Source of the DNA: Fibrobacterales bacterium
GTDB lineage: Bacteria > Fibrobacterota > Fibrobacteria > Fibrobacterales > JAOPTW01
Reading direction: 5' to 3'
NCBI GenBank assembly: GCA_051532055.1
Contig: JAOPTX010000007.1
Coordinates: forward strand, 1-64,000
DNA length: 64,000 nucleotides
The position numbers were made by a program, and so were the translations under genes. Below the pieces are notes generated by a model that was given only the letters and a program-made list of their open reading frames with translations, ran no database searches and was not told the DNA's origin. This document shows positions 1,671 to 60,312 of the stretch, piece after piece. Positions within the stretch are counted from its first letter, which is position 1. Every line of letters begins with the position of its first letter.

Positions 1671-1679
1671 GATCTACCT

Positions 1680-2750: not shown

Positions 2751-2821
2751 TACTTCCCCACCCTTTGCCTATTCTGCCTGTCTTTAAAAAATAACCTAAT
2801 TTAAAATTGCCCAACCTAATT

Positions 2822-4375: not shown

Positions 4376-4395
4376 ACAATTCCGTACAGAACAAC

Positions 4396-4416
4396 ATAAA
4401 GCGAGTATCGTGCCAG
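4396..4416 (-). promoter_or_regulatory. Sigma54 (RpoN)-type -24/-12 promoter for fliF-fliI
   Basis: Minus strand CTGGCACGATACTCGCTTTAT: GG and GC at sigma54 spacing, ~20 nt upstream of fliF; near-identical motif upstream of flgB. Confidence 0.8.
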
Positions 4417-4565
4417 TTTTTTACTTGAGTTTACATAGTGAAAAGGGCTATTTTGAGCTAAATTCGAAGGTAAAAGTTAAAGCAATTGTTGAGAAACAGG
4501 CAGGAGCACCTATTTTTGCCTCATTCAAGGAAGAATTTTCCCCTCGATCTACAGCCTTCTTACTA

Positions 4566-4593
4566 TAGATCGGGAGAATTCAAAAATACTTGA
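4566..4593 (-). promoter_or_regulatory. Sigma28 (FliA)-like promoter upstream of fliF
   Basis: Minus strand TCAAG-N15-CCGATCTA; imperfect match to TAAAG-N15-CCGATA. Confidence 0.45.
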
Positions 4594-4625
4594 GTGTTTT
4601 TAATAGAAATCCATTTTGTAGGTGA

Positions 4626-6491: not shown

Positions 6492-8350
6492 ATAATTCCT
6501 TCAATAAATTTTTGTTGATCCTTATAAAAACGAATTTTCTCTTTACGCTCATGGGGATAAAATAATCTTTTCTCTAATGCAAATTTTCGAGAGACTGTTC
6601 GTTTTTTTCGCCGCCACTTACCACTACAAAAATCTGTAGTTACTTTACCCGCCTCAAGATCACGATATCCTCGCGGAAGTTTCCAGCTATCTTTTTGAAT
6701 AAGGTTATGCACCATGCGCGGCCCCTCTAAATAGCGAGTCGTATAAGAAAATTCTTTGTTATAAAGATAGGGGGTATTTAATTGAAACCCTCCCGCATCC
6801 ATCTCTATATAATTTTTATGAAAGTCAGCATCATATGCAAAGGTCACTTTGTCTGAAGTTAAATCTTTAATGATAATCTCATCACTTACAATTTTAAACG
6901 CCTCTGCTAAAAAATCTTTAAGCGCAAGATTGTCCATCTCCTGACCAATTGCATTATAGCGCATATAAAAATAAAAAGCCGGTGTACCTTCTAGATCTAT
7001 CGTCCCTTTCATACGCCATCGTTTATTTTTTTTATCTTGATAGATACTATTTTTAGTTTCCACTACATTAAGATCAGGGTTCCCCACAATAGAGTCGGGC
7101 ACCGCACCACTCGTAGTGAGAGCGACCACTTTTCTACCAATCAACGGGTAATAACTATTTGACCACTCAGCCTTTTGAATTGTAGGGTCAATATATAGAT
7201 ATCCATCATCAGTCTTAACTCGCGCTATCATATGATTGAAATAACCAAGCCCCGGGTAGGCATCCACCTGCTGTAATCCTCCATTATTTACGAGTACCAA
7301 TTCAACATCAACACCTACTTCTCTCAGTATCGCTTTATACATCGAAGCGAGTTCTTTACAATCTGCAAGACCTGTTTTAACAATTTTTTTAACATCTCGA
7401 GGAATATAAGCATGATAGGCACGTTCATCAGCATGATAGCGAAATGTCCTCTTCAACAGATTAAAGCCCTCTTTTAATTTATCAGTTTTATTTCTTCCTT
7501 TTATTTGACTTGCGAAGTGCCTTATGTTTGCATCACCTGTAAGATTTTGTTCTATCTGCTTATAATAATAGTTCCCAATTTCTGCCCAACTCATTGAACG
7601 TGTCCCCACAGGAGGTAACGACATATAAAACGCACAATACCAGAGTTCCTTTAAGTATGACGAGTCAGATCTATCTATTTTATGTAATTCCCTAGATTCA
7701 AGAGTAACTCTTTGAGTTGTCCCAGCCTTTTTCTCTGTAAAGGTCACTTTAAGCTTCTCACTATTCTCAACCCCATACTTTATCTTCATAGATGTAGGAT
7801 ATTCAAGGACCACTTTTTTATGAAGTACCGGAACCATGCTTCTCATGAATACTCGAGCTCGATGTTCTGGTTTAAAAATACTTCGCTTAATCACTCTTTT
7901 TATGATCATTCCATCGGTATATCGTGAAAATGTGACCGCAGTCCCCCAACCATTCGACTCATCTATTCCTTCATTTTTCAACCTAAAACGATACATACCC
8001 TTTTTTCTCTTTGTAGCCCCATCAGCAAAAAATGCTGTAGCTGTTAATTGAGCAGGATTCTCAATAGATTCAAAATCATACGCTACTAAACTTTTCAACT
8101 CATCATTTTTTGCTGATTGAACATAATACCAAGTCGTATGAATAACTTCCAAGGAGTTAAACTCGGCATTCTGCTTGAGGGTATAGTGTTCTTCATCAGA
8201 AAGTACCACATACGGTTCATCTTTCCATTTATCAGGAATATCTATTTGGCTGGCAGTATACTCATCGGGTAACACCGATTTTGGAGCAACACAGCCTGCG
8301 AGCCCCCAAACGAAAAGGAAACATAGAAATAGGGAATATTTGAAATACAT
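6482..8350 (-). CDS. DUF3857/transglutaminase-like cysteine protease-fold lipoprotein with intact triad
   Basis: Lipobox LAGC; GLADCKELAS (Cys), FNHMIARV (His), YIDPT (Asp). Confidence 0.85.
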   Translation of the reverse strand: MYFKYSLFLCFLFVWGLAGCVAPKSVLPDEYTASQIDIPDKWKDEPYVVLSDEEHYTLKQNAEFNSLEVIHTTWYYVQSAKNDELKSLVAYDFESIENPAQLTATAFFADGATKRKKGMYRFRLKNEGIDESNGWGTAVTFSRYTDGMIIKRVIKRSIFKPEHRARVFMRSMVPVLHKKVVLEYPTSMKIKYGVENSEKLKVTFTEKKAGTTQRVTLESRELHKIDRSDSSYLKELWYCAFYMSLPPVGTRSMSWAEIGNYYYKQIEQNLTGDANIRHFASQIKGRNKTDKLKEGFNLLKRTFRYHADERAYHAYIPRDVKKIVKTGLADCKELASMYKAILREVGVDVELVLVNNGGLQQVDAYPGLGYFNHMIARVKTDDGYLYIDPTIQKAEWSNSYYPLIGRKVVALTTSGAVPDSIVGNPDLNVVETKNSIYQDKKNKRWRMKGTIDLEGTPAFYFYMRYNAIGQEMDNLALKDFLAEAFKIVSDEIIIKDLTSDKVTFAYDADFHKNYIEMDAGGFQLNTPYLYNKEFSYTTRYLEGPRMVHNLIQKDSWKLPRGYRDLEAGKVTTDFCSGKWRRKKRTVSRKFALEKRLFYPHERKEKIRFYKDQQKFIEGIIWK

Positions 8351-8384
8351 AACGCTCTCTAAAAATAAAGTGAGCTATAAATAT

Positions 8385-8416
8385 AAAAAAACCGAAAGAG
8401 AAGACTCTTTCGGTTT
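8385..8416 (-). terminator. Intrinsic terminator after fliE
   Basis: aaaccgaaagag-aaga-ctctttcggttt perfect 12-bp stem, followed by a T run on the minus strand. Confidence 0.85.
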
Positions 8417-8441
8417 AAAAATTGTAAGTGAGATGCATTGA

Positions 8442-8750
8442 TTAGCCACGCATTTTTATCAATTCTTGATAGGCTTCCATTGTTTTGTTCCGTATCTCGA
8501 GCATCATATTAAATGCAACCTTAGCTTCACCAACAGCAAGCATTACCTGGTGTACATCTTTGATTTCACCTGCCACCATTTTCTGAATAGACTCATCAGC
8601 TGTATGCTGCATTTTGTTCACATCTTTAATGAAGCCGGTAAGCATATCATCGAACCCAGGAGTGCCTTTGGCATCCTTCTTGATACTTTTTACTTCAAAC
8701 CCTTCCTGGGCTTTCTTTAGGGGGTCCATCCCTTTCATAGGGTCCATCAT
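8442..8750 (-). CDS. fliE: Flagellar hook-basal body protein FliE
   Basis: DVHQVMLA..EAKVAFNMMLEIRNKTMEAYQELIKM motif. Confidence 0.96.
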   Translation of the reverse strand: MMDPMKGMDPLKKAQEGFEVKSIKKDAKGTPGFDDMLTGFIKDVNKMQHTADESIQKMVAGEIKDVHQVMLAVGEAKVAFNMMLEIRNKTMEAYQELIKMRG

Positions 8751-8760
8751 TCTTAACCTC

Positions 8761-9120
8761 CTACGCCATCATATCAACGTAATTGCCCAAATTCCTTTTC
8801 GTAGGGCGGTTTGGCTCTGTGTCTAAATCTACATTATTCGCCTGTATACTGCTAGAAATATAATTATTTGCAATTGCACCAACAGACTTTATCATTGTAG
8901 TTACCGAGGGAGCTTCCAGCTTCTCGATATTATTTTTTCGGATTGTTTCGAGGTCAACTTGAGGCATTTTCTTATCAAGATTTTGCTCTTTTCGTTTTGC
9001 TTCAAGAATCGTCCGCCAATCGCCGCCCGATTGTGCATTTGTTTCACGCGGCGCCATATTATTTCGCATCTGTGCTTGCTGGCGTATCGCTTCAAAATTG
9101 TTAAATCCGACTGTGTTCAT
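8761..9120 (-). CDS. Hypothetical protein inside the flgBC-fliE operon, C-terminal LGxxVDxxA motif
   Basis: Tightly packed between flgC and fliE with GAGG SD; ends ...RNLGNYVDMMA. Confidence 0.8.
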   Translation of the reverse strand: MNTVGFNNFEAIRQQAQMRNNMAPRETNAQSGGDWRTILEAKRKEQNLDKKMPQVDLETIRKNNIEKLEAPSVTTMIKSVGAIANNYISSSIQANNVDLDTEPNRPTKRNLGNYVDMMA

Positions 9121-9137
9121 CCGTAAACCTCAAATCT

Positions 9138-9644
9138 TTATAGTTTCAACGCTTCCATGAGCATTGCTTTTGTTGAACTAAATGCGGTAACATTCGCTTC
9201 GTATGCGCGAGTTGCTGAAATCATATCAGTCATTTCTTGTACAACATTTATATTAGGCATTGCTACATAACCCTCTTTATTAGCATCAGGGTGCTTAGGG
9301 TCATATACCAATCGAGGCGCATTATCATCTTGATGAATCTCAGCAACCTTAACTCCACTCCCAATATATTCTCGATCAATTATAAATTCAGAATCAGGGA
9401 TATCCATATGATTCTGATGGGTGAACTTTCCCTGTAATTTTGGTGGTCCAAATACAAACTTTTTATTGTATTCTTCTGGATCGGCCTCAAAAATGACCGT
9501 TTGTTTCTTATAGGGGCCACCCTCATCAGTTCTCGTTGTCTCTGCATTGGCAAGGTTTGATGCAATAACATTTTGGCGCACTCTTTGTGCTCTCAGCCCT
9601 GTGGCTGAAATATTGAGTCCTGTAAACATTCCTACTAATGGCAT
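9138..9644 (-). CDS. flgC: Flagellar basal-body rod protein FlgC
   Basis: ASNLANAETTRT..GGPYK, YDPKHPDA..GYVAMPNINVVQEMTDMISATRAYEAN. Confidence 0.97.
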   Translation of the reverse strand: MPLVGMFTGLNISATGLRAQRVRQNVIASNLANAETTRTDEGGPYKKQTVIFEADPEEYNKKFVFGPPKLQGKFTHQNHMDIPDSEFIIDREYIGSGVKVAEIHQDDNAPRLVYDPKHPDANKEGYVAMPNINVVQEMTDMISATRAYEANVTAFSSTKAMLMEALKL

Positions 9645-9659
9645 AGCATTACCTCCCTA

Positions 9660-10079
9660 TTACCCTCTGAGTTTAATAGCAGCATTCACATCCGCCATTC
9701 TCTCAGAAATAAATTTTGCGCCATAACTAAACAGAATTTGATTCTCTGCAAGCTTTGACATTTCAATATCGACATCAACATTATTGATTTCCCCAGGAAG
9801 CGTTGGATCTTCCGCACGATAGGCCTGTGGATTTATTTTATTGAGATCTGGGCGCCCTAAATAAAAGTGATTTCTACTCGTTCTATCACCCTGTATATTC
9901 TTTTCATTAAGAGCCTCACGTAATTGCTCTTCAAAACGCACTTCTATACGGTTATACCCTGGCGTGCTCACGTTAGCTAAGTTATTTGCGAGGGCTTTTG
10001 ATCTAAGAGCACTCGCATCAAGACTTTTTGATGCTACAGTGATCGATGTTCTATCGTAGATTCCCAATTTGGCCAGCAT
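9660..10079 (-). CDS. flgB: Flagellar basal-body rod protein FlgB
   Basis: ANNLANVSTPGY and NNVDVDIEMSKLAENQI. Confidence 0.96.
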   Translation of the reverse strand: MLAKLGIYDRTSITVASKSLDASALRSKALANNLANVSTPGYNRIEVRFEEQLREALNEKNIQGDRTSRNHFYLGRPDLNKINPQAYRAEDPTLPGEINNVDVDIEMSKLAENQILFSYGAKFISERMADVNAAIKLRG

Positions 10080-36999: not shown

Positions 37000-37027
37000 T
37001 TAAGTCCCCTTTTTTAACATCCGATAT
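37000..37027 (+). promoter_or_regulatory. Sigma28-like promoter in trkA-DUF4954 intergenic region
   Basis: TTAAG-N16-CCGATAT. Confidence 0.55.
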
Positions 37028-37035
37028 TGAAGATA

Positions 37036-37237: not shown

Positions 37238-39109
37238 GTGCTTGCTCAAGTAAAAAAACGGATTAAAAACTCTGAAATATTAGCGGTTTCTCAACGCATT
37301 GCCCAAAACAAGATCCCCTCATATAAATATCGCCCTCTTACTGACACTGAGATTGCCGAACTTATTCAGAATGGCAATACGTGCGATGATTGGACTCGAA
37401 TTCAGGCTGACCTACAATTCACAACTACTCAAATTCGCAACACTACCTTTTGCGGAAAGGTCTATCTCCCAAAATTCTTTGGTAATCTGATGGCACCTGG
37501 TGGAGTCTCAGTACCTGCAGGCATATTTAATTCGTCTATCAATAACAGTATTATTGAAAATTGCCACCTCTTTAATGTTTCAACACTTTCAAATACTATC
37601 GTTTCACACAGCGCCCTCCTGCGCAATGTAGGCTCTGTTATAGGCTCTGGTAAAACTCATTTTGGAGTGGGCCGCAAACTAAATATTGGTGATGAAACCG
37701 GCAACAGAACACTATTAGCGTTCCCTGAAATTGATCTTTCTATCGCAACAGCTGTTGTGATGAACAAGGAGGATATTGACTTTCAAAACGAGTATACTGA
37801 ACTCATTGAAGAATATCGAGAAAATTCTCTATCACCCTTTACCTTTATTGATCAAGAAGTAATTATTTCGAACACCACCAATATCCGAAATGCTTGGATT
37901 GGACGAAATGCCCGCATTGATGGAGCTATTCGCATTAAAAACTCTGTGATACTCAGTTCAATGGAACAGCCCAGTGCAGTCTATGATGGAGCAATCATTG
38001 AAAATGCAACACTACAATGGGGTTGTGAAGTGTGTTCATTGGCCCTTGTTGATCACTCAATACTTCTTGAAGAATCATCAGCCTCTAAGCAAGTTAAAAT
38101 AACCCACTCAGTTATTGGATCAAATACACACCCAGAATCTGGAGAAATCACCTCATCTCTCATTGGACCTTTTGTCGGCATGCACCATCAATCACTACTT
38201 ATTGCAGCGCTGTGGCCAGATGGTTGTGGCAATGTAGGCTATGGAGCTAATGTAGGGAGCAACCATACAGGGCGTCTTCCCGATCAAGAAATCTACCCAG
38301 GTCAAGGAATGTTTTTTGGCCTGAGCACTAGTATTAAATTCCCGGCAAACTACTCTAAATCACCATGGTCGCTCATAGCAACGGGAGTCACCACACTCCC
38401 TCAACGCCTTAAATTCCCCTTTTCCCTCATTACCGAAAGCCAAGGAAGCACACCACAACACCTCCTCCATCTCAACGAACTCCAGCCCGGATGGGTTTTT
38501 AGATACAATGCATTTGCCTTAGCACGAAATGAAATGAAATTTTCTAAACGAGATAAAAGTCGTCGAAATAAAGCGCCCTACACCTACATTACTAAAGAAA
38601 CTGCACAAATGGTTCTTGCGGCATGGCATCGTCTTAACACCATCGTACAAGTCAAAGAGTACTACACCGAAGAAAATATTGAAGGACTCGGAAAAAATTA
38701 CCTCACTGAATCTAAAAGGCAACAAGCGCTTATCGCCTATGCAGATTACCTCGAGATGTACGCCCTTCGACGAATCATTTCTAAACTTGAAACTAAAGAA
38801 GAGCTACTCGCTTCAGAAAAACCAACGGTAAAAAAACTATTCAATAACGACATCATGAGAGACATTGCACGCATTGTCACTTTTCCAGCCTCTACCATCC
38901 AACTCCTCAAGCGCTATCGCAAAGTCGAAAGAGCATGGACAGACGCTATAAGAGAATCAATTCAAAAAGACTTTGATCGTGGGGTTAAGGTTTTCGATGA
39001 CTACACCGACATTCACTCACCCGATGAACCTTCTCTACAATTTATTCAAGATACTTTTGATAACAATAGGAAAAGGGCAAATAACTTAATTGCCCTTGCT
39101 AAAAATTAA
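37238..39109 (+). CDS. DUF4954-family left-handed beta-helix protein
   Basis: YRPLT..EI..L..NGNTCDDW, hexapeptide-like repeats, GPFVGMHHQSLLIA, GSNHTGRLPDQE. Confidence 0.8.
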   Translation: MLAQVKKRIKNSEILAVSQRIAQNKIPSYKYRPLTDTEIAELIQNGNTCDDWTRIQADLQFTTTQIRNTTFCGKVYLPKFFGNLMAPGGVSVPAGIFNSSINNSIIENCHLFNVSTLSNTIVSHSALLRNVGSVIGSGKTHFGVGRKLNIGDETGNRTLLAFPEIDLSIATAVVMNKEDIDFQNEYTELIEEYRENSLSPFTFIDQEVIISNTTNIRNAWIGRNARIDGAIRIKNSVILSSMEQPSAVYDGAIIENATLQWGCEVCSLALVDHSILLEESSASKQVKITHSVIGSNTHPESGEITSSLIGPFVGMHHQSLLIAALWPDGCGNVGYGANVGSNHTGRLPDQEIYPGQGMFFGLSTSIKFPANYSKSPWSLIATGVTTLPQRLKFPFSLITESQGSTPQHLLHLNELQPGWVFRYNAFALARNEMKFSKRDKSRRNKAPYTYITKETAQMVLAAWHRLNTIVQVKEYYTEENIEGLGKNYLTESKRQQALIAYADYLEMYALRRIISKLETKEELLASEKPTVKKLFNNDIMRDIARIVTFPASTIQLLKRYRKVERAWTDAIRESIQKDFDRGVKVFDDYTDIHSPDEPSLQFIQDTFDNNRKRANNLIALAKN

Positions 39110-39157: not shown

Positions 39158-39451
39158 CTAAATTGAATCAAGAGTATCAGATATCATAGTTCCCTGTGCA
39201 GCAACATTCATACCACTTCCGAGCATATCGAGACCCGTCAGATGATTTGCTGATTGCATCGCTCTTTGGTTTTGCTCTGCAATTTGGGTAGCCACGCTAC
39301 TAATATCATTTATAGCCGCCTCTTGAGAATAAAGCTCTTTTACTTCATTCTCATTTAACAGTGTAGATTCTGAATCTTTTTTATACGAAGTAGCCCCACT
39401 TGTTTGTGGATGCACTCCCCCTCCTGGGGTATTTGATTGTATTGGATCCAT
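39158..39451 (-). CDS. Small (~97 aa) hypothetical protein under a consensus sigma28 promoter
   Basis: GGAGG SD 8 nt before ATG (MDPIQSNTPGGG...); dedicated promoter, structured leader and downstream hairpin. Confidence 0.8.
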   Translation of the reverse strand: MDPIQSNTPGGGVHPQTSGATSYKKDSESTLLNENEVKELYSQEAAINDISSVATQIAEQNQRAMQSANHLTGLDMLGSGMNVAAQGTMISDTLDSI

Positions 39452-39452
39452 T

Positions 39453-39590
39453 TTCATTCCCTCCATAGAACGAATAGTTCATCATGAGCGTTTCCATGCT
39501 CACTCTTTTTGAAAGGGTCGAGACGTTATATCAATGAGATACATGCTCTCCAACATGCATCTCATTATTCTGTCTCGGGACTCTCTCCCC
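39453..39590 (-). promoter_or_regulatory. Structured 5' leader with three GGA-loop hairpins (putative CsrA sites), one over the SD
   Basis: 15-bp hairpin with GGAG loop (39533-39566); TGAGC-ATGGAAAC-GCTCA (39485-39502); TTCGTTC-TATGGAGG-GAATGAA (39453-39474). Confidence 0.7.
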
Positions 39591-39598
39591 TAGTATTA

Positions 39599-39626
39599 AT
39601 ATCGGCAGGATATCAAAAACCTTTAG
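39599..39626 (-). promoter_or_regulatory. Consensus sigma28 (FliA/SigD) promoter
   Basis: Minus strand CTAAA-GGTTTTTGATATCCT(15)-GCCGATAT. Confidence 0.88.
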
Positions 39627-39721
39627 GCCTTTTTATCATTTACCATATTTTCATTTGGATATAGGCCAAATTCATTAATTTTAGGCAATTTTTCTATATT
39701 GTTCTATAAAAAGCTGGCTCC

Positions 39722-40972
39722 ATGACATCACAGACTCTACTCATTATCTTTATTTCTCTTTTCGCACTCAACACATTTATCACCTTATTTCTGGAAAAGA
39801 TCAATACCAATAATTTAAAAAAATTCCCTTTAGCGCCCGGCCAATTTTCCACATCAATTACTGAGAACGAATATTTAAAAAGTCAGAAGTATACAAAAAA
39901 CAAATCTCAATTCTCCATTGTTTCTTCACTTTATTCTGCAATTATAACCCTCATAATCCTTTTTTCTGGACTCCTTCCCTGGATAGATCAAACAGTACTT
40001 AAAATATTTTCAGTCCAATCGAATCCACTCAGCCACTCAGTGCTCGTACTTCTCTTCCTTTCATTTATTGCCAGTATTCCTCACATACCCTTTAAACTCT
40101 ATAGCACATTCAAACTCGAAGCCAAATATGGCTTTAACAAACAAACCATCAAAGAGTTTGTCATAGATGAAGCCAAAGCACTCCTTCTCTCTCTGATTAT
40201 TGGAGTTCCCTTTCTCTTTGCTGTTTTCTGGTTTTTTGAGGCTACTGGACCACTCTGGTGGCTTTGGCTCTTTAGCTTTATCGCCCTCTTTCAAATCATA
40301 ATGATGGTAGTTTACCCCATATGGATTGCCCCACTGTTTAATTCGTTCACCCCTCTTGACGAAGGAGAACTCAAAGACAGACTCAACGACCTCGCGCAAA
40401 AAGCCTCATTCACCACCCAAGGCATTTTTGTCATGGATGGCTCAAAGCGGTCAGGTCACTCTAATGCTTATTTTACAGGGTTCGGCTCATTTAGAAGAGT
40501 CGTCCTCTATGACACCTTAATTGAGCAACTCACAACAGATGAACTTGTTTCAGTCCTTGCACACGAGATCGGCCACTACAAAAAGAATCACATCTATAAA
40601 ATGTTAACCCGAGCATTACTTTTTATGGGTTTTGGCCTCTATATCCTCTCACATGTTATCAGCTGGGAACCACTATACACTAGTTTTAATGTAACCCCAA
40701 GTCATCACATGGGGCTCTTCTTATTTATGACTATACTCTCTCCACTCCTGTTTTTCATAACCCCATTAACGAACCTCTTCTCTCGTAAATATGAATATGA
40801 AGCGGATGCATATGCCGTGGCAATTACTCATACCAAAGAACCAATGCAACAAGCACTCATCAACCTCAGCAAAAAGAACCTGAGTAATCTGACGCCCCAC
40901 CCCTTATACAGCGGCTTTTATTATTCTCATCCCACAACACTGGAACGAATAGATGCGATTGAAGAGTTGTAA
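39722..40972 (+). CDS. M48 family (Ste24/CAAX-protease-like) membrane zinc protease
   Basis: DGSKRSGHSNAYFTGFG, LAHEIGH, EYEADAYA, YSHP...ERI. Confidence 0.95.
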   Translation: MTSQTLLIIFISLFALNTFITLFLEKINTNNLKKFPLAPGQFSTSITENEYLKSQKYTKNKSQFSIVSSLYSAIITLIILFSGLLPWIDQTVLKIFSVQSNPLSHSVLVLLFLSFIASIPHIPFKLYSTFKLEAKYGFNKQTIKEFVIDEAKALLLSLIIGVPFLFAVFWFFEATGPLWWLWLFSFIALFQIIMMVVYPIWIAPLFNSFTPLDEGELKDRLNDLAQKASFTTQGIFVMDGSKRSGHSNAYFTGFGSFRRVVLYDTLIEQLTTDELVSVLAHEIGHYKKNHIYKMLTRALLFMGFGLYILSHVISWEPLYTSFNVTPSHHMGLFLFMTILSPLLFFITPLTNLFSRKYEYEADAYAVAITHTKEPMQQALINLSKKNLSNLTPHPLYSGFYYSHPTTLERIDAIEEL

Positions 40973-51380: not shown

Positions 51381-53705
51381 CTAGGGTATAGTTACTGAAT
51401 CCGTTTGTGGCACATCAACATGAATTACGGCACTATCACTAACCGGCCCTTGCACCTGTTGTTCTAGTATTTCTACTGCCTTCAGGGAGTCCTGAATAGC
51501 TTTTAACTGAAGTGTATCAAGTTCCAAGGTATCTTGCCCTCCATATCTATAAAGGTCAATATTCTTTTCAAAATTAACTTTACCATCCCGCTTTTCAAGA
51601 TTATGTAAATCTTTCTTAAGGTCAACGCCAAAGTCTTCAGGATTCTGAATATATGGAGTAATATAGATAACTAACTCAGTTGTCTCTTCCGCCTCTATTT
51701 TATGTGAGAAAAGTGAACCAAGTACAGGAATTGAGCCAAGAAAAGGAAGGTAGTCATTTGAAATTGTCTTCTTAGACTGAATCAATCCACCGAGCATAAT
51801 AGTCTGCTTGTTAAGAAGGGTGACGGTTGTCTCAAGGCTTCTCGTACTGATATCTGGAGTCCCGCTCCCTGACCCACCTGTTGATGTTTTAATCTGTGGA
51901 CTAATATCAAGGGTTATTTGGCCCCCATTAGTAACAAAAGGAGTTATAGAGAGAGTGATACCATCATTAAATGCTTTATAGTCATTATTTACAACACCAG
52001 ACTGTGCGTTCGTCGAAGATACTTCGCGAAAGGTAGTATTGGTTACTTTGATTGACGCTTTATTACCATTCAATGTGGTAATTTTGGGCATAGCGAGTAC
52101 CTTAGCTTTTTGATCATTCTCTTTAGCCATGAGCTCATAATAAAACTTTGAATTTAAGAAGCCGATTCCCAAACTTGCATCTCCAAGATCCTTAAGTGAT
52201 ACTTTATTTTGATTAATTGGATTGTCATCTTTTGCAAAGTCAAGCATACCATAGAGTCCTGGAATACTATCAGATGCTCCTGCACGGGATGGTTTGAGAC
52301 CAAACTCCTCTCCATTACCTCGTTTATATTCAACAATCACACACTCAAGCAGTACTTGAGGAATAGGAACATCAACAATATCAAGATATTTTTTTACACT
52401 CTCAATCTCACTCGTTGTGCCCATTATAAGTATAGCATTGTGTTCTTTAATGATAGTAATGTTGGTTTTAGAGATAGATTTAGGAAGTATCTTCGTCACA
52501 TTTTCAGATTTCAAATGTTTCAGAGGATACATTTCATAAGAAGTAAGAATCTTTCCTGCTGGTGTTTTCGGGTCTTTAGAACCAACAAGTAGGGTGCCGT
52601 ACTCAGTTATTAAATAAGTATATTTTGATCCCTTTAGAAGCATTGAGATTGCTTCAGCCAGTGGAAGCCTTTTGAGGCTGGCATTAATCGACTCTCTAAT
52701 ATTTCCAAAAAAGACAATATTAATGTCTGATTCGGCGGCTATCGTTTTTAGGACATCTGCAAGATCTGCGTTTTCTAGGCTCACTGAAACACTGTCACCA
52801 ACAACATCAATCTCGAGGCGACTCCCTCCTGGGCTCGGAAGGCCCCCATTTGAGTTACGACCTCTCGTTGTCTCTTCCGTACCGCCACTAACAATATAAA
52901 AACCATTCCTCTTACGTACTTTATAGTTATGGGCAGCCATTAGTGCCTTAAACCCTTCAAGGGGAAGTTGGTTTTTCCAGCTCCCTGTAATTTTCCCCTC
53001 TAAATTTTTACCTGCTAGAATATTGAGTCCAGTCTTCTTAGTAAAAGTTTTAATGAATTTTTTAATATCCTGATTTTGCACATCAAGATCCATTTTTTTG
53101 CGCTTCATCTTTAAAAGCTCAATAGTCTCTTCTGTCGCATTTGAAATGCGATAGATTGACCCTTCACGAATCAACTCCAAATTATTTGCCCGGCAAATTG
53201 CCGAAAGCCCCTCTACAACTCCTACATCTTCCAAATGAATAGAAACTTGCACCGAAACATCGTTATCGATTATTATACTATATCCATAAGCAATAGAAAT
53301 AGTTCGTGCAACTTCACGAATATCAGTGTCAACAAAATCAATTGTCATGACATCAACGTCTTCCTGTGCTGGTCCTTTTTTTAACAACGTTGTTGGATCA
53401 GTTTTTGTAAGCCCTCTCGAAATCGATTTATTAACGCGAACACTATTCTGTGGAATAGCCCCTTTTTTGTGCGCTGATGTACTTGGGTATGATGATGGGC
53501 GAACCGAAGAAGATGGTCGTGCTGGTGTTATCGCCACCCCCTTCTGGCTGCGCTTAGCTTGTAAGCGCTGACGATAGAGCTTTTGAACCTCTTGTGGTGA
53601 AAGAGTTTTCAGCTCCTCTTCAGTGAAAAGTTCACGGACGCCCTGAGAAACAGCCAAAGAACAAGCGAGAGCCAAGCAGATTACAACAACCTTAAAATTT
53701 ACCAT
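51381..53705 (-). CDS. Secretin (GspD/PilQ family) with several N domains
   Basis: IDFVDTDIREV, DVPIPQVLLECVIVE, PKITTLNG, GGLI, PFLGSIPVLGSLF, ELVIYITP. Start refined to MVNFK. Confidence 0.93.
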   Translation of the reverse strand: MVNFKVVVICLALACSLAVSQGVRELFTEEELKTLSPQEVQKLYRQRLQAKRSQKGVAITPARPSSSVRPSSYPSTSAHKKGAIPQNSVRVNKSISRGLTKTDPTTLLKKGPAQEDVDVMTIDFVDTDIREVARTISIAYGYSIIIDNDVSVQVSIHLEDVGVVEGLSAICRANNLELIREGSIYRISNATEETIELLKMKRKKMDLDVQNQDIKKFIKTFTKKTGLNILAGKNLEGKITGSWKNQLPLEGFKALMAAHNYKVRKRNGFYIVSGGTEETTRGRNSNGGLPSPGGSRLEIDVVGDSVSVSLENADLADVLKTIAAESDINIVFFGNIRESINASLKRLPLAEAISMLLKGSKYTYLITEYGTLLVGSKDPKTPAGKILTSYEMYPLKHLKSENVTKILPKSISKTNITIIKEHNAILIMGTTSEIESVKKYLDIVDVPIPQVLLECVIVEYKRGNGEEFGLKPSRAGASDSIPGLYGMLDFAKDDNPINQNKVSLKDLGDASLGIGFLNSKFYYELMAKENDQKAKVLAMPKITTLNGNKASIKVTNTTFREVSSTNAQSGVVNNDYKAFNDGITLSITPFVTNGGQITLDISPQIKTSTGGSGSGTPDISTRSLETTVTLLNKQTIMLGGLIQSKKTISNDYLPFLGSIPVLGSLFSHKIEAEETTELVIYITPYIQNPEDFGVDLKKDLHNLEKRDGKVNFEKNIDLYRYGGQDTLELDTLQLKAIQDSLKAVEILEQQVQGPVSDSAVIHVDVPQTDSVTIP

Positions 53706-53834
53706 GTAATACTCATTAGTAGAGAGATGTATTTTCAGTGAAAATGTACCAAAAATACCATCAAATAACACGTAAATGGTTGATTTTCAAGAGGTTATGG
53801 CGATGATTTTACAGCAAATATACAAGAGCCCCCC

Positions 53835-55307
53835 TTAACGGAGAAGGACTCGTTCTATTTCTGAAATAGAGGTAAGGTTTTGTTTTAGTTTACTGAGTCC
53901 ATCTTCTATCATCGAGTCAAAGGAAGCACGTTTTCTAATTTCGACCTCACTAGCCGTTTCTGAAATAATTTCCTTAATCTCTTGATTGATTTCAAGGAGC
54001 TCAAAGACAGCTAATCGACCATTATATCCCGTATGATCACACCGCTCACATCCTACAGCCTGAGGCACCTCAAGAGGGACATTAGGAACGACCGACTTAA
54101 TATAATCAGAGCTCTCAATCATGGAATAACAATGGGGACACAGTTTACGCACCAATCGTTGAGCAAGGACACAAAGCACTGAACTTCCAATTAAAAACGA
54201 AGGGATATTAAGATCAACTAAACGGGTTATTGCCGACATTGCATCATTAGTATGCAGTGTCGAGAGCACTAAGTGACCTGTTTGAGCTGCTTGTACTGCT
54301 ATCTGTGCTGTTTCGGTGTCACGAATTTCACCCAAAAGAATCACGTCAGGATCTTGACGAAGGAGCGATCTAAGCACTGAAGAAAAAGTGAGTCCCGCCT
54401 TTTCATTCACCTGCACCTGATTTGCACCTTTAAGGTGATACTCTATCGGGTCTTCAATAGTCGTAATATTTATCTCTTTATTGATCACATGTTGCAGGCC
54501 AGCAAAAAGAGTTGATGATTTACCAGAACCAGTTGGTCCCGTCACAAATATCATTCCCTGAGGGCGTGTAAAATAGAACTGTAACCGTTTAAGAACATAA
54601 TCAGACATTCCCAAATTTTCGAGCTGTTTGAGAGTATCCATATACTTGAGAATCCTGAGTACTATCTTCTCACCAAATTTGGTAGGAAGAGAACTCACCC
54701 GCATATCAATTTCTTCCCCATGATAGTTCCATTTGATACGCCCATCTTGAGGAAGACGTTTTTCCGAAATATCAAGTTCTGCCAAAATCTTTAAGCGTGA
54801 TACCAGGGCTGCTCTCACCCAGCTAGGAAGCTCCAGACTTTTTCGGAGCATACCATCTTTTCTAAATCGAACGACCACTTCATTTTCAAGTGATTCAATA
54901 TGAATGTCAGTTGCACCCTGCTCAATCCCTTGATTTATAAGGTTATTAGCAAGATTAATTACTGGCTGTGATTGACTATGCTTTTTAATTTCATCAATAT
55001 CACTACTCTCATCATCGAAATTGATCTCTGCCTCATCAAGGTTCTGAAGAAGAGAATCATTTGAGGTACTCTTTGACTTTGAATCAGAGAGGAGTTCATC
55101 AATAGCACTCTCTTCCGTAAGTTTAGGACGTACTATATGACCTGTTTTAAAATAAACTGCAGAAAAAAGAAGCTCATCAAACTCATTTATAACCGCAAGG
55201 TCGATATATGAATCTTCAAACTTAAGAGGATAACATTTATGCTCTCTACAAAACTTTAACCCCAGTGAGGCTACGATACTTTTTTTCTCTTCACTCATAC
55301 ATTCCAA
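53835..55307 (-). CDS. GspE/PilB-family assembly ATPase
   Basis: ATDIHIE, RLPQDGR, GPTGSGKS, TIEDPIE, LRQDPD, TGHLVLSTLHTN, CPHC...CERC. Confidence 0.95.
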   Translation of the reverse strand: MECMSEEKKSIVASLGLKFCREHKCYPLKFEDSYIDLAVINEFDELLFSAVYFKTGHIVRPKLTEESAIDELLSDSKSKSTSNDSLLQNLDEAEINFDDESSDIDEIKKHSQSQPVINLANNLINQGIEQGATDIHIESLENEVVVRFRKDGMLRKSLELPSWVRAALVSRLKILAELDISEKRLPQDGRIKWNYHGEEIDMRVSSLPTKFGEKIVLRILKYMDTLKQLENLGMSDYVLKRLQFYFTRPQGMIFVTGPTGSGKSSTLFAGLQHVINKEINITTIEDPIEYHLKGANQVQVNEKAGLTFSSVLRSLLRQDPDVILLGEIRDTETAQIAVQAAQTGHLVLSTLHTNDAMSAITRLVDLNIPSFLIGSSVLCVLAQRLVRKLCPHCYSMIESSDYIKSVVPNVPLEVPQAVGCERCDHTGYNGRLAVFELLEINQEIKEIISETASEVEIRKRASFDSMIEDGLSKLKQNLTSISEIERVLLR

Positions 55308-55319
55308 AATACAAATTAA

Positions 55320-55931
55320 TTACTCGATATCCAAATCCAGAGCTTCAATATCTATGCGCTCTTGAATTCGGTTACGTATAAAGAAACGGGATTCATACTT
55401 CCTACTTCGAGGACCATACACAAAACGTACAAACATTGTACGCACCTTATTGAGTTCACTCCCTTCAAGAAGACCAGACATATCTTGATCCAACTCATCT
55501 TGGGTTATTAAACCATCCCCGTCAGAATCTAACGCAAAGAGTTCTTCCCCGTCCTGTTCTTCGTCAAGCTGTTTACCCTCTACACCACACGACACCTCTG
55601 AAAGTGCATGGGGAAACAATGCTCTATTATCGGAAAATATCATAGTATCATTCCATGAAAGCTTCCGTTGAAGCCCCATTTTATCTTGATAATAGATACC
55701 CGTTTCATACACTGCAATTAAACCATCCCCATAGGCAATGGTTTGTTCGACACTACCCCATCGACTTTCTATAGCCAAATGATGCTGCCGTGTCTCTCTT
55801 TTACCTCTCGAAACCCCATATGAATTTGTATATAAACTATACGCAAGAGTCAAAACAATAGAGGCTACAACCATAGTCACTATAAGTTCAATTATAGTGA
55901 CACCTCTTTGGAGTGAACAAGTTGTATACAC
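55320..55931 (-). CDS. Minor (pseudo)pilin, PilW/GspJ-like, with EF-hand-like loops
   Basis: RG|VTIIELIV class III signal; DSDGDGLITQDE. Confidence 0.85.
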   Translation of the reverse strand: MYTTCSLQRGVTIIELIVTMVVASIVLTLAYSLYTNSYGVSRGKRETRQHHLAIESRWGSVEQTIAYGDGLIAVYETGIYYQDKMGLQRKLSWNDTMIFSDNRALFPHALSEVSCGVEGKQLDEEQDGEELFALDSDGDGLITQDELDQDMSGLLEGSELNKVRTMFVRFVYGPRSRKYESRFFIRNRIQERIDIEALDLDIE

Positions 55932-56401
55932 TAGTTATCCCTCACCACTTCTATATTCATGAGAAGGCGTAAATCACCTTCTTCGATATACTCTGGATCA
56001 ACATCTTCAAATGCCTCTTCAAAGTCATTCTCTTCTGGCTCATATCGATAGATGCCATACCGTATCTCTTTGGGCCGCTTATAGAGTCGCTCTACATCAT
56101 CTGTTTCCCATATATATAGGTCTGCCATACTATCTAATGCAACCGTATCAATAACTCGTTGCCACAGAACAAGCTTGTGCGTTGTATCTGCAATCCATAA
56201 TGAATCTACAAGAGGAAGCTGTGGATTTGCCAAAATATACTCTACTCTATTATGTAAATGAGAAAAGGCAGCTAACTGTCTGTATGAACGGCTCTCCATC
56301 ACAGCGCTATTAACAAAAATCACATTCACCCCAGCAATACCAATACTGAGAAGGGCAATAGCTACAAGTACTTCGATGAGTGTAAACCCTTTATTCATCA
56401 T
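55931..56401 (-). CDS. Minor (pseudo)pilin, PilV/GspI-like
   Basis: MMNKG|FTLIEVLVAIALL prepilin motif. Confidence 0.9.
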   Translation of the reverse strand: MMNKGFTLIEVLVAIALLSIGIAGVNVIFVNSAVMESRSYRQLAAFSHLHNRVEYILANPQLPLVDSLWIADTTHKLVLWQRVIDTVALDSMADLYIWETDDVERLYKRPKEIRYGIYRYEPEENDFEEAFEDVDPEYIEEGDLRLLMNIEVVRDN

Positions 56402-57872
56402 AGTCCTCTTCATCATCGGAGTCTGCATCTCTGATACTCTCAATATTCACATCGGTATCTTTCATCCACTGTGCCATTACAAATGCACTCTTGTCACCCT
56501 GAAATTTCATATCTATGGGTTGATAAAAGGCCCCAAGAGTAAGTCGATTTATTGTTCCATTTCCAAAACAATGTGGTTGACCATCACAGGCCATACTCTT
56601 TGCAACAACAGAACCAATTACATCTGTTCCATTTTCAACAACCCCTTTGGCAAAAACGACTCCAGTGACTTGTGCGCCTTGACTAAGAAAAACATCACCT
56701 GCAGGCTCAGAAAGGGTCCGCGCATTGGCAGTGCTAATAAGCATGCCATGTACGGTTGCGCCTTCGGTAATATAAAGAGACCCCATACCCTGACCCGCAT
56801 CAACAACAGTACCCGCTGTAATAAGTACAGAGTTATTCACTACCGCAGCACTATCATTCAGTACAATGTCACCCTCAGCCATTACAAGGCCCTGTAAATG
56901 TGTTGAATCATTCAGCTCAATACGTTCTTTAGAGTAGAGAGTAACATTAGAGCCACGAACCCCCTCCGAAACTATAATTGGCCCTGATGCAATCAGTGTT
57001 ATATTTGAAAGGTCAATCATGCCTTCTATTGTTGCACTTCCCTCTACAAAGATATGAGTAACCGTTTTGGGGGCTACAACTCCAGTCTCACCAACATCAA
57101 TGGTGAGGTCACCTTCAGGAATAATGATTTTTTCTAATTCTTCAAAATCTTCTAAATTTGAATAGTTCGAAGGTGAACCAAAAATATCTTCATTATCTCT
57201 CAATGCCTCATTAAACGCCCTTTTATAATACATAAGCTTTGAACCTGCATATCCCTTCACACCCGAGAGAATACGACCAACTTTTGTCGGATTTGCTTTA
57301 TGCTCCTCATCGACATTCTTTCCCAAGCTTGCATAAGCACCTTCGACAGATGACTCTGAATAATCCTGTAGTGCTGTGTCGCCGGTAAGTATCAGGGCAT
57401 GATCAAAATATGAGCTCAACTCATTTCCATAGTGAATTGTAAGAGATACCGACAATCCTTCAAATGTAGCAGTGGTGCTATATCGTAACCACATACCTAC
57501 TGTATCCGATACTACTTCAGGCAATACTTCTTTACTACTCACTAAAATATGATGCATATCAGTGCTAATATTTGCAAGAGAAGTATCAGGTGCATACCCT
57601 TCCGAGCCTACAACAATACTGTCACCATCAAGTGTATCCACAAAGGGCTTTGCCTCGAAGTCGTCATATTTTTGTAGTACAATTGCGTTCTCTGCAATCA
57701 TAAGGGCTTTATACTTACGATACTTTGCATGCCATGGGCTCGCCATAAGAGAGCTTTTTAAAAGGGAGACCGCTAAAATAGTTATGATTGATATTATAAG
57801 AAGTACTGCAGGTATCGCGTTTCCACGCTGGTGCTCTATCGATAGACTCTGACAACGCTGTATCAGGTGCAT
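56391..57872 (-). CDS. PilX/GspK-like large minor pilin with beta-helix-like C-terminal repeats
   Basis: RG|NAIPAVLLII (no Glu5, as in PilX/GspK); repeated V.G.i.a.G motifs. Confidence 0.7.
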   Translation of the reverse strand: MHLIQRCQSLSIEHQRGNAIPAVLLIISIITILAVSLLKSSLMASPWHAKYRKYKALMIAENAIVLQKYDDFEAKPFVDTLDGDSIVVGSEGYAPDTSLANISTDMHHILVSSKEVLPEVVSDTVGMWLRYSTTATFEGLSVSLTIHYGNELSSYFDHALILTGDTALQDYSESSVEGAYASLGKNVDEEHKANPTKVGRILSGVKGYAGSKLMYYKRAFNEALRDNEDIFGSPSNYSNLEDFEELEKIIIPEGDLTIDVGETGVVAPKTVTHIFVEGSATIEGMIDLSNITLIASGPIIVSEGVRGSNVTLYSKERIELNDSTHLQGLVMAEGDIVLNDSAAVVNNSVLITAGTVVDAGQGMGSLYITEGATVHGMLISTANARTLSEPAGDVFLSQGAQVTGVVFAKGVVENGTDVIGSVVAKSMACDGQPHCFGNGTINRLTLGAFYQPIDMKFQGDKSAFVMAQWMKDTDVNIESIRDADSDDEEDYDE

Positions 57873-57874
57873 AG

Positions 57875-58336
57875 TTACTTCAATGAAAGGCTAAAGGTAC
57901 CAGTGGGCCCTTTAAAGGATGCTGTGGTCCCTGCGATACTCTCTAACATTGCACCTTCTAGAGAGTCACCTATCTTTAAAACCGAAACACGACCATCTCG
58001 ATCAGTTACTGTAACAGCTCTCTTTGCAACCATACCTGTGATAGTGTATTCTCTGAGGGCTGAAGGTTTTACAGTTGACGCAACTTTTTTAGCCCGTCCT
58101 TTCTTACGCCCCTTAGTTGCTCCTGTTCCGGTAAATGGGTTGCGATATTTTGCTACTGCTTTTGTATTTTGATTTTTAAGTGATGCCACATAATTTGCCC
58201 AAGTGTTGATATCAACCTTTTTGTAAACCGGTGCAGATGTTTTACCCGTTAGCGCATGTAAATCAGGAAAACTAAGCTTTTTAATAGCTAGGACAAGACA
58301 GACCACAATTATCAGATAACTCAACTTCCTATTCAT
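57875..58336 (-). CDS. PilP/GspC-like assembly protein
   Basis: N-terminal TM, RNPF, ITGMV...A...LKIGD. Confidence 0.65.
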   Translation of the reverse strand: MNRKLSYLIIVVCLVLAIKKLSFPDLHALTGKTSAPVYKKVDINTWANYVASLKNQNTKAVAKYRNPFTGTGATKGRKKGRAKKVASTVKPSALREYTITGMVAKRAVTVTDRDGRVSVLKIGDSLEGAMLESIAGTTASFKGPTGTFSLSLK

Positions 58337-58338
58337 AA

Positions 58339-58875
58339 CTACTTCTTTAAATACTCAATGTGCATTCCAGAGATGGCATACTTCCCTTTCTGCTTTTTTA
58401 TTGAAAACCGAGTAACAACCGAAAGCGGTCGTTTAGTTTCTATCGAATAGAGATACCGTATAAAATATCGATAAGAACCCGTTAATGAAAGAGAAACCAC
58501 ATGGTGATTACTCCCTTCTACGGGTTTACTTTCTTCTTTAACTTTTTGAACGGTGAGCCCTATTTTTTCTGCCAATTTCCGAAATCCCGTTTCAGAATAC
58601 CCTTGAATACCATCACCGACAACCCGGCCATCTAACAATGAATAGGCCTCATCTAATATTACAATCTGGCTATCCAGTACATTTATCTCATTCGTAAACC
58701 ACTCATCCGAAAATGTTTGGGCTGAAAGAGTGGCTATTTCTTTTCTCGTTTGTTCAACCTCTTGTAACATCGGATAGAGAATAAATTGATATGATAGAAG
58801 GAGCAACGCCAGGGGAAAAACTATTTTTGCGAGAAACCACTGCTCTTCGGCCCAGAATGTTTTAAAATCACCCAT
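58339..58875 (-). CDS. PilO/GspM-like assembly protein
   Basis: TM, coiled coil, SLSLTGSY..F..YL..IE motif. Confidence 0.75.
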   Translation of the reverse strand: MGDFKTFWAEEQWFLAKIVFPLALLLLSYQFILYPMLQEVEQTRKEIATLSAQTFSDEWFTNEINVLDSQIVILDEAYSLLDGRVVGDGIQGYSETGFRKLAEKIGLTVQKVKEESKPVEGSNHHVVSLSLTGSYRYFIRYLYSIETKRPLSVVTRFSIKKQKGKYAISGMHIEYLKK

Positions 58876-60152
58876 TACTTGACCTCCAAAATAACTTGAG
58901 CCGAAACAGGCCCTTTAGAGGTCTTCTTTTTACTTCCTATTGCACTTAAAATAAAGATTTCACTTGCAGAAATTTTCTCTTCAAAACTTGTTAACGCATC
59001 CCATGAAGAAACAAACAGTTGAAATTTAATTTCGCGCGCATCACCCCGAGTCATTATTTTTATAGAACGAATTTTTCCTCGCTTCGGTATCATGTGTGAC
59101 AGCGAATTTAAATATCCACTCCATGCAATCGGTTGTTGTACTCTTTTTTTCCGATCATTAATTTTTCCCAGAAGCTCATTTACTCTTGTTTGAGACGAAT
59201 CTAATCGAGAGACTTGCGCTGTATAGACCTCAGACTGTTGTAATAGAACTGCTTTTTCACCATCCAAGTTATTCTGTACAATTATAAGTGAACCACACAG
59301 AATGCCTACAATAAGTACAATGACTTGAATAGCAGATATAAGGGTTATACTATTACGAGAATTGATCGCCGCCCTTTTCTCAGAGTCAGTTTGAATATTC
59401 AATTGACTTGCAAAGTCCGACTGTGCCATTTGAGCCAAACCATCAGTCACCAAGGCTTCTACAGCTTTAGGCGCAGGACGTCGTATTTCAACTTCACTCA
59501 GTGAAACTCCTGGGAGCATATCCTGAAATATGTAACATTTCCAAGGGCCATGACTTTTATGAAATGCATCTTGTTTTAAAAACTGGACTAAGCGGTCAAG
59601 CCTCTGAGAGACATGATCATCAGAAACATAGGGTTCTTTGATAAAATAGGAAAGAGCACCCCCAGTAAAAACAGCTACAAGAAGTGCATTATCAAAAGCA
59701 ATAGCCACAATGCAGTCACTTTCACCATCAGCCATAAATTTTTCACCAATACCCACACTAAAGAGCTCTATGGGTAAACTGACATCTTGAAAGGCAAGAG
59801 GGGCGCCTTTGTGCTCACTTGCATGGACCACTAATATTCGATGATGGGTTCCAGCATTAGAATCGTGTGTTGATACATAATAGGTTCTAAAAAGATCAAA
59901 TGTCTTTTCAGGAAAATTACTTTTCAGATGGCCTTCTATATGATACTCATCCAAAAACTCATTATACGGGGTAATAATTTCACAAATGAGATATTCACAC
60001 CCATGTACTGCTGAAACAACAGATCGATAATGACTTAAAAATGAGTACCCCGCCTTCTCTTTAGCTCGATAAATATGTTTTAACCACCGACTATTCGCCG
60101 GCTCGCTGCACAAAGCATCGCTTACATATATGAGAGTATCTTTTGAAAACAT
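58875..60152 (-). CDS. PilM/PilN (GspL-like) fusion assembly protein
   Basis: Cytoplasmic domain, LNI motif, TM, coiled coil, WSGYLNSLSHMIP; first gene of the cluster. Start refined to MFSKD. Confidence 0.6.
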   Translation of the reverse strand: MFSKDTLIYVSDALCSEPANSRWLKHIYRAKEKAGYSFLSHYRSVVSAVHGCEYLICEIITPYNEFLDEYHIEGHLKSNFPEKTFDLFRTYYVSTHDSNAGTHHRILVVHASEHKGAPLAFQDVSLPIELFSVGIGEKFMADGESDCIVAIAFDNALLVAVFTGGALSYFIKEPYVSDDHVSQRLDRLVQFLKQDAFHKSHGPWKCYIFQDMLPGVSLSEVEIRRPAPKAVEALVTDGLAQMAQSDFASQLNIQTDSEKRAAINSRNSITLISAIQVIVLIVGILCGSLIIVQNNLDGEKAVLLQQSEVYTAQVSRLDSSQTRVNELLGKINDRKKRVQQPIAWSGYLNSLSHMIPKRGKIRSIKIMTRGDAREIKFQLFVSSWDALTSFEEKISASEIFILSAIGSKKKTSKGPVSAQVILEVK

Positions 60153-60312
60153 TTGGTTCCTGAGACAAAAATACAAATAAATGTCGATTTAAGAGTAGAT
60201 TAATGACCACCTTAAATGACTTATTGTGGGATACTCATTTATAATTCAGCCCCCACTATCCAGAGATAATAGTATCTTTTGCTCAATACGCTCAGTGAAG
60301 GCTTACCAATTC

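Follow-up and report, generated by a model that had tools for sequence, protein, structure and literature searches.

A small orphan gene with a predicted flagellin-type control region in a flagellated Fibrobacterales bacterium

The window analysed here, a DNA stretch of 64,000 nt, comes from an uncultured marine flagellated Fibrobacterales bacterium. On its minus strand, positions 39626-39065 form a compact, self-contained transcription unit around one small ORF. The unit begins with a sigma28 (FliA)-type promoter (39626-39599), which consists of CTAAAG at 39626-39621, a spacer and GCCGATAT at 39606-39599. The transcript start is predicted from the promoter geometry at about 39593-39590, and the RNA that follows is predicted to fold into a 5' rod (39593-39511), a second hairpin (39503-39484; 6-bp stem, GGA at 39495-39493) and a third hairpin (39477-39448; 7-bp stem plus 4 bp, hexaloop AUGGAG) lying over the Shine-Dalgarno sequence (SD) and the start codon. 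The ORF (39451-39158) encodes 97 aa plus a stop; its ATG is at 39451, with GGAGG 8 nt upstream. A longer frame of 102 aa, which would start at 39466, was discarded for want of an SD, and P0003, a homolog, starts at the Met equivalent to 39451. The stop codon is followed by two hairpins in tandem (39148-39101 and 39097-39065) that resemble terminators and have U tracts, and the region 39148-39065 folds with a z-score of -5.07 (0 of 200 shuffles). The first terminator stem is also listed on the plus strand, and the second hairpin overlaps the 3' end of the convergent neighbouring gene. The original prediction of an ORF of about 97 aa followed by a downstream hairpin was therefore borne out, with two hairpins in place of one.

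Next to the unit lie a gene for a DUF4954 beta-helix protein, convergent with it, and one for an M48 peptidase, divergent from it, and the basal-body cluster (FliH, FliG, FliF, FliE and FlgC; 588-10079) lies 29 kb from the small ORF. This setting among unrelated genes, far from the flagellar cluster, counts against reading the small gene as late flagellar. Within the basal-body operon itself, two ORFs of 621 and 622 aa lie between fliF and fliE (4626-8350, minus strand), one without a Pfam family and the other with only a transglutaminase-like core. Elsewhere in the window, a type II secretion or type IV pilus-like cluster (51381-60176, minus strand) comprises a secretin, a T2SSE ATPase, two N-methyl prepilins and four ORFs without a family. 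In the metatranscriptome of the probable source sample (run X3, 11.5 million letters of contigs), contigs cover 38632-38971 and 39584-40088 and none covers the ORF; at a contig depth of about 4, this is evidence of neither expression nor silence. In two DNA runs of a second study, labelled plastisphere (X1 and X2), the gene is present and unchanged.

The sigma28 consensus is TAAAGTTT-N11-GCCGATAA, and the promoter of the small gene agrees with it at 14 of 16 positions, in the expected layout of a -35 TAAA(G), a 15-nt spacer and a GCCGATAA-like -10. The match to TAAA-N15-GCCGATA at 39625-39600 is exact and the sole one in the window, in agreement with the consensus CTAAA-N15 promoter originally predicted. 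With up to one mismatch allowed, 1.12 promoter matches are found in shuffled sequence, so the motif alone is weak evidence. Genome-wide, the strict textbook pattern occurs 13 times against about 11 expected by an arithmetic estimate; there is thus no enrichment, and again the motif alone proves little. The exact pattern TAAAG-N14-17-CCGATA has 15 sites in the genome, including the target, three flagellins and an FlgB-like rod gene. We also built a weight matrix from ten flagellin-type promoters of the genome, leaving the target out, and scanned both strands at four spacings. The target promoter ranks 14th overall; as seven of the 13 higher sites are training sites, it is the seventh among untrained ones. 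The best untrained site lies upstream of the FlgB-like rod gene. The second-best (G000:C35:23660-24596, L033) lies upstream of an SprA-related (PF12118) gene of 300 aa, which may be another flagellum-coexpressed gene, judging from this promoter match. A regular-expression scan returned 358 sigma28-like sites with up to one mismatch, 36 of them with an SD and ORF, a noisy result that serves as context only. One such one-mismatch site, GTTAAG-N16-CCGATA (37000-37030, plus strand), is found 211 nt upstream of the DUF4954 gene; it is absent among the best 40 matrix sites listed and is therefore probably due to chance.

The leader, about 141 nt from position ~39593 to the ATG, folds with a minimum free energy of -50.2 kcal/mol (z -4.54), and none of 200 shuffles was as stable. 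Its outer rod (39587-39511) is made of three nested short helices, GAGAG/CUUUC, GUC/GAC and GAGAC/GUCUC, and closes hairpin 1, a 16-bp stem (39567-52 / 39547-32) with a GGAG loop whose GGA is at 39551-39549. The leader of about 140 nt and the GGAG-loop hairpin nested in a CGAGAC/GTCTCG stem had been described in the original prediction, and both were found, the stem measuring 16 bp. Hairpin 2 pairs 39503-498 with 39489-84 and carries the loop AUGGAAAC. In hairpin 3, 39473-67 pairs with 39460-54, the AUGGAG loop is the SD (GGAGG, 39464-39460), and an extension of four pairs (39477-74 / 39451-48) takes in the start codon. The fold thus contains the second GGA hairpin and the third, ATGGA hairpin over the SD that had been anticipated, and the three loop GGAs have predicted unpaired probabilities of at least 0.96. 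The ATG and codon 2 overlap with one more GGA. The upper distance for two sites bridged by one CsrA dimer is about 63 nt; the GGA of hairpin 2 and that of the SD, 31 nt apart, would form two predicted CsrA sites within reach of one dimer. The GGAG tetraloop on a 16-bp stem is atypical as a CsrA site, which counts against hairpin 1 in that role. For comparison, 1480 sampled 151-nt gene-upstream regions of the genome were folded: 1411 have no loop GGA, 66 have one, three have two and none has three, the number in the target leader. Counted in this way, the genome's eight tandem flagellin leaders have 0 to 2. A regular-expression scan for A[UCA]GGAGG SDs gave 122 sites, 24 of them with a GGA hairpin; it too is noisy and serves as context only.

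The sole ortholog with readable DNA is that of G001, a genome of the same genus, and the parts of the unit have diverged to very different degrees between the two. The promoter is identical at 26 of 28 positions and the block from hairpin 2 to the SD at 64 of 68, compared with 56 of 73 for the 5' rod (with its fold kept), 234 of 291 for the coding region and 35 of 58 for the 3' UTR. As dS of the ORF is 0.86, the promoter and the block from hairpin 2 to the SD are far more conserved than neutral sites. Among 47 consensus base pairs of the leader, three show compensatory changes, all within the 16-bp stem of hairpin 1, eight are changed on one side and kept, and none is broken; since only one same-genus ortholog has readable DNA, this covariation rests on two sequences. 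Hairpin 2 has three one-sided changes with every pair kept and an invariant loop, hairpin 3 is invariant, and so are all GGA loops. The promoter and GGA loops, whose conservation in homologs was to be expected from the original prediction, are therefore kept in this one ortholog. The first terminator stem of G001 differs in sequence and keeps its pairing. Over the whole ORF dN/dS is 0.134, falling to 0.055 in codons 43-97; the ORF is real and under purifying selection. Meanwhile, dS is only 0.27 in codons 1-25 (39451-39377), which hold the further GGA motifs AUGGAU and CCAGGAGGGGGAG, compared with 1.17 in codons 43-97, which hints at an RNA-level constraint near the start.

The gene has a very narrow distribution. 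Two of 41 genomes of relatives match, namely the genome itself and G001, and the other 151 Fibrobacterales genomes searched are without the small protein. Across the phylum, three of 296 genomes match (the same two and G211) and 293 are without the protein; the match in G211 (E 0.008) lies inside a 1919-aa frame and was taken as chance, so that among these 296 genomes the small protein is confined to one genus. A search of genome contigs found G001 only, and one of metagenome contigs gave no match. The genome studied here (G000, 5.2 Mb) is that of a flagellated organism; the other searched genomes of the order measure 1.6-4.3 Mb.

All three regulators that the original prediction named for confirmation, FliA, CsrA and FliW, were found in the genome. 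FliA is recognised at 259.5 bits (cut-off 189.6), and fliW and csrA lie directly 3' of a flagellin gene in a flagellin-fliW-csrA operon. In addition, a fliD-fliS pair was found. Of 12 Flagellin_N matches, eight stand in tandem on a single contig, and the genome encodes about ten flagellins. Their promoters read (C/T)TAAAG-N15-17-CCGATA, their leaders have a 5-6-bp hairpin with an A(C/U/A)GGA(A/U) loop, and their SDs are shown as aaacAUGGAGguuu, with the same AUGGAG hexaloop as in the small gene. The flagellin-type control region proposed for the small gene is therefore matched, in its promoter, GGA-loop and AUGGAG-SD motifs, by the flagellin genes of the same genome. In the tandem array (G000:C36:1-9750, L012-L018), eight flagellin genes lie on one strand, each with its own sigma28-type promoter, GGA-loop hairpin and AUGGAG-loop SD. 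One member of the array (L014:325-1914, minus strand; G000:C36 ~4399-5988) encodes a flagellin of 530 aa that has the Flagellin_N and Flagellin_C ends plus an inserted stretch of about 300 aa, which has no Pfam match and contains an HEMTH (HEXXH) motif; we presume that this arrangement recalls the proteolytic flagellins.

A covariance model (R1) was built from seven of the eight tandem flagellin leaders; fla8242 was dropped because its first hairpin lies further upstream. The model gave no match at the locus, and its 10 matches (E 0.68-8.8) are all elsewhere. By blastn of the whole unit against its own genome, neither a paralog nor a paralogous leader was found. Therefore, the likeness of the small gene to the flagellin leaders is one of design and not of descent.

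The regulatory reading is well supported by the sequence evidence. We put at about 0.6 the probability that the small gene belongs to the late (class 3) flagellar genes, is monocistronic and has its translation gated by CsrA and FliW. With its flagellin-like promoter and CsrA-type hairpins, the gene would have its small protein made, probably, only while the filament is built. FliA (sigma28) would initiate transcription near 39593, and CsrA would bind the GGA of hairpin 2 and that of the AUGGAG loop over the SD and block the ribosome, with the hairpin that pairs the start codon aiding the block. FliW, freed on flagellin export, would then capture CsrA and release translation, and the small protein would thus be made in step with flagellin, only after completion of the hook-basal body. 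The 5' rod with its GGAG loop might be a third CsrA site or might protect the 5' end.

The protein itself is an orphan and, as far as profile searches can tell, a member of no known family. Among 1.84 billion cluster representatives, HMMER profile searching recovered no more than two matches, the G001 protein and a second cluster, P0003 (105 aa, E 1.7e-16). The four family members share an N-terminal M-[DE]-P-[IL]-Q-S...G-V-H-P, followed by a linker, predicted to be disordered, that varies in length and sequence and by a well conserved C-terminal half, AAINDI.SVA..IAEQNQ.AMQSA..L.GLD.LG..MNV..QG.MI; the N-terminal motif and the C-terminal half are kept down to 49% identity. Pfam and NCBIfam gave no match at E up to 1, and at E up to 10 the Pfam matches to PDH_N (0.16) and DUF4145 (0.012, in two of the four members) were judged to be chance. 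A sequence profile search of the PDB reached a best E of 1.2, with unrelated proteins, and Foldseek against the PDB, run with a model of pLDDT 64.6, had no match at E up to 10. The AlphaFold2 models (pLDDT 64.6 and 59.9) predict the first 27-33 residues to be disordered and then a low-confidence helix; pLDDT is below 50 over residues 3-20, and a long helix comes after. The disordered N-terminus of the original prediction is thus also what AlphaFold2 predicts. Here, then, a new and very narrow protein family carries a known kind of regulation.

As to function, we infer that the small protein is most likely either a late flagellar export substrate or a small regulator of the filament stage that acquires its fold on binding a partner. 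For C. jejuni, the available part of one report describes non-flagellar proteins that exit via the flagellar export system (PMC5223770), and by analogy an exported role of the small protein would be plausible. More tentatively, it may be the first of a new kind of checkpoint factor acting at the filament stage: small and unfolded, without sequence relationship to FlgM or ExsE, it would be exported via the finished flagellum or would bind FliW, CsrA or sigma28. Such a factor would couple the sigma28/FlgM and FliW/CsrA checkpoints in one molecule, because its own synthesis would be gated by CsrA, and its GGA-rich mRNA would also titrate CsrA.

A related and rather unlikely proposal is that the protein is a checkpoint like FlgM in function and not in sequence, with the helical half binding sigma28 or another regulator and the disordered N-terminus exporting the protein via the completed flagellum. 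FlgM has a disordered N-terminus and a helical C-terminus, and the small protein resembles it in this predicted layout, in size and in its sigma28-type promoter. In the Atlas, which compares language-model features, the nearest named cluster is the secreted type III secretion regulator ExsE (0.91, 109 of 256 features shared), with small Flagellin_C-only proteins at 0.78-0.80 and FlgM at 0.76. However, recognition in the Atlas is low (1951 vs 2300) and 109 shared features are in the chance range, and its neighbours are leads, not memberships; the small protein has no Pfam match to ExsE (PF18286). FlgM identity is also contradicted by the Pfam profile: PF04316 has no match in the small protein at E up to 10, and a search of the genome with it yields four other loci, which read as canonical FlgM and do not include the small ORF. 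Canonical FlgM paralogs are thus already encoded, and a fifth FlgM-like gene stands behind a sigma28-like promoter. In all, the genome has four to five FlgM-like small proteins (G000:C49:46881, C92:20455, C7:223293, C23:113027 and C10:129325; L020-L023, L031), three of which exceed the Pfam cut-off; another escapes Pfam detection and has an FlgM-like C-terminus and a sigma28-like promoter.

It is about equally improbable that the mRNA has a dual function in which the leader mainly soaks up CsrA and boosts flagellin translation, the protein being secondary. The dense and conserved GGA loops, three in loops with two to three more GGAs around the start, agree with this proposal, and the low dS of codons 1-25 suggests an RNA-level constraint that extends into the ORF; in the accessible part of its description, the C. 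jejuni flaA leader provides a precedent (PMC4894983). However, the C-terminal half, with a dN/dS of 0.055, is under strong purifying selection and is kept in distant homologs, so the protein matters, and about ten flagellin mRNAs already offer such sites.

Still less probable is a functional stand-in for FlaG, acting on filament stage or length. Many flagellates lack FlaG. In this genome, no PF03646 match exceeds the cut-off (best E 0.154) and there is no small ORF upstream of fliD, and the lack of both leaves room for such a stand-in; C. jejuni flaG is sigma28-dependent and CsrA-controlled, according to the available part of the source (PMC4894983). Against this proposal, the small protein has no PF03646 match or other sequence likeness to FlaG, it is predicted to be all-helical, and the genome is only 94% complete. 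On the sequences compared, no evidence ties the small protein to FlaG.

In the case of the flagellins themselves, the original prediction saw in the small protein an echo of the flagellin C-terminal D0 pattern and suggested a mini-flagellin mimic that titrates FliS or FliW. A mimic occupying FliS or FliW would fit the control shared with flagellin, and the small Flagellin_C-only proteins are among the Atlas leads; nevertheless, we regard it as highly improbable. In hhalign against the flagellins of the genome, the probability is 1.7% and the highest-scoring stretch is one other than the C-terminus. When the target protein (P0001) is aligned to flagellin C-termini, its Smith-Waterman score is reached by 256 of 500 shuffles, and across the four family members the figure is 138-256 of 500. 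The echo is thus no better than shuffled sequence, and Flagellin_C (PF00700) has no likeness to the small protein, which leaves the mimic without support; the Pfam comparison that had been suggested with Flagellin_C, FlgM and FlaG returned no match to any of them. Co-folding of FliS (31-row alignment) with the small protein (4-row alignment) gave scores of 0.00 and 0.01, the mark being 0.32, which is neither support nor counter-evidence. Finally, that the gene has nothing to do with motility, its promoter-like and GGA motifs serving another regulon or being incidental, would suit the non-flagellar neighbours and the strict motif that is not enriched genome-wide, but it is scarcely credible given the joint occurrence of a promoter that matches exactly, a leader with three loop GGAs (seen in 0 of 1480 background regions), an SD loop, AUGGAG, that the flagellins have in identical form, and above-coding conservation.

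The late flagellar reading under CsrA/FliW control has consequences of two sizes. Flagellins are already known to be subject to a sigma28 plus CsrA/FliW gate, as are a few other late genes in Campylobacter; in the present case a predicted gate of this type singles out a family of orphan proteins in a flagellated Fibrobacterales branch, and the control region would give the orphan protein a time of action, namely filament assembly. Should the protein be a regulator that is exported, or have FliW, CsrA or sigma28 as its partner, a checkpoint thought complete would gain a component; otherwise it would be one more lineage-specific late flagellar gene.

Among known systems, ExsE (PF18286), the secreted regulator of Pseudomonas type III secretion, resembles the small protein in being small and largely unfolded; the small protein differs in having no Pfam match and only 109 shared features. 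With FlgM (PF04316) it shares, on the models, a length of about 97 aa, a late promoter, a disordered N-terminus and a helical C-terminal half, but it has no domain match, and canonical FlgM paralogs are encoded elsewhere in the genome. In C. jejuni, flaG belongs to a flaG-fliD-fliS operon. In contrast, the small gene stands alone with its own high-density leader and has no sequence relation to flaG. As the available part of the source has it, flaG is small and sigma28-dependent, and its protein abundance depends on CsrA, FliW and the flaA leader (PMC4894983); the small gene would be similar to it as a small non-flagellin late gene with predicted sigma28 and CsrA control.

The closest parallels are the flagellin leaders. 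The B. subtilis hag leader combines a sigmaD promoter with CsrA sites and the FliW partner switch. Like the flaA and hag leaders, that of the small gene has a sigma28-type promoter and loop GGAs, the last over the SD, and as in those systems the fliW-csrA pair of the genome adjoins a flagellin gene; unlike them, the small gene encodes no flagellin. In the part of the source at hand, C. jejuni flaA carries a pair of ANGGA loops, the second covering its ribosome-binding site, plus one more GGA, the third, at codon 2, with its CsrA sites 21 nt apart and an optimum of 18 nt (PMC4894983). In comparison with this partial description, the leader of the small gene is longer, about 141 nt as against 45 nt in flaA, with an extra 29-bp rod that carries a GGAG loop; as in flaA, it places a further GGA at codon 2.
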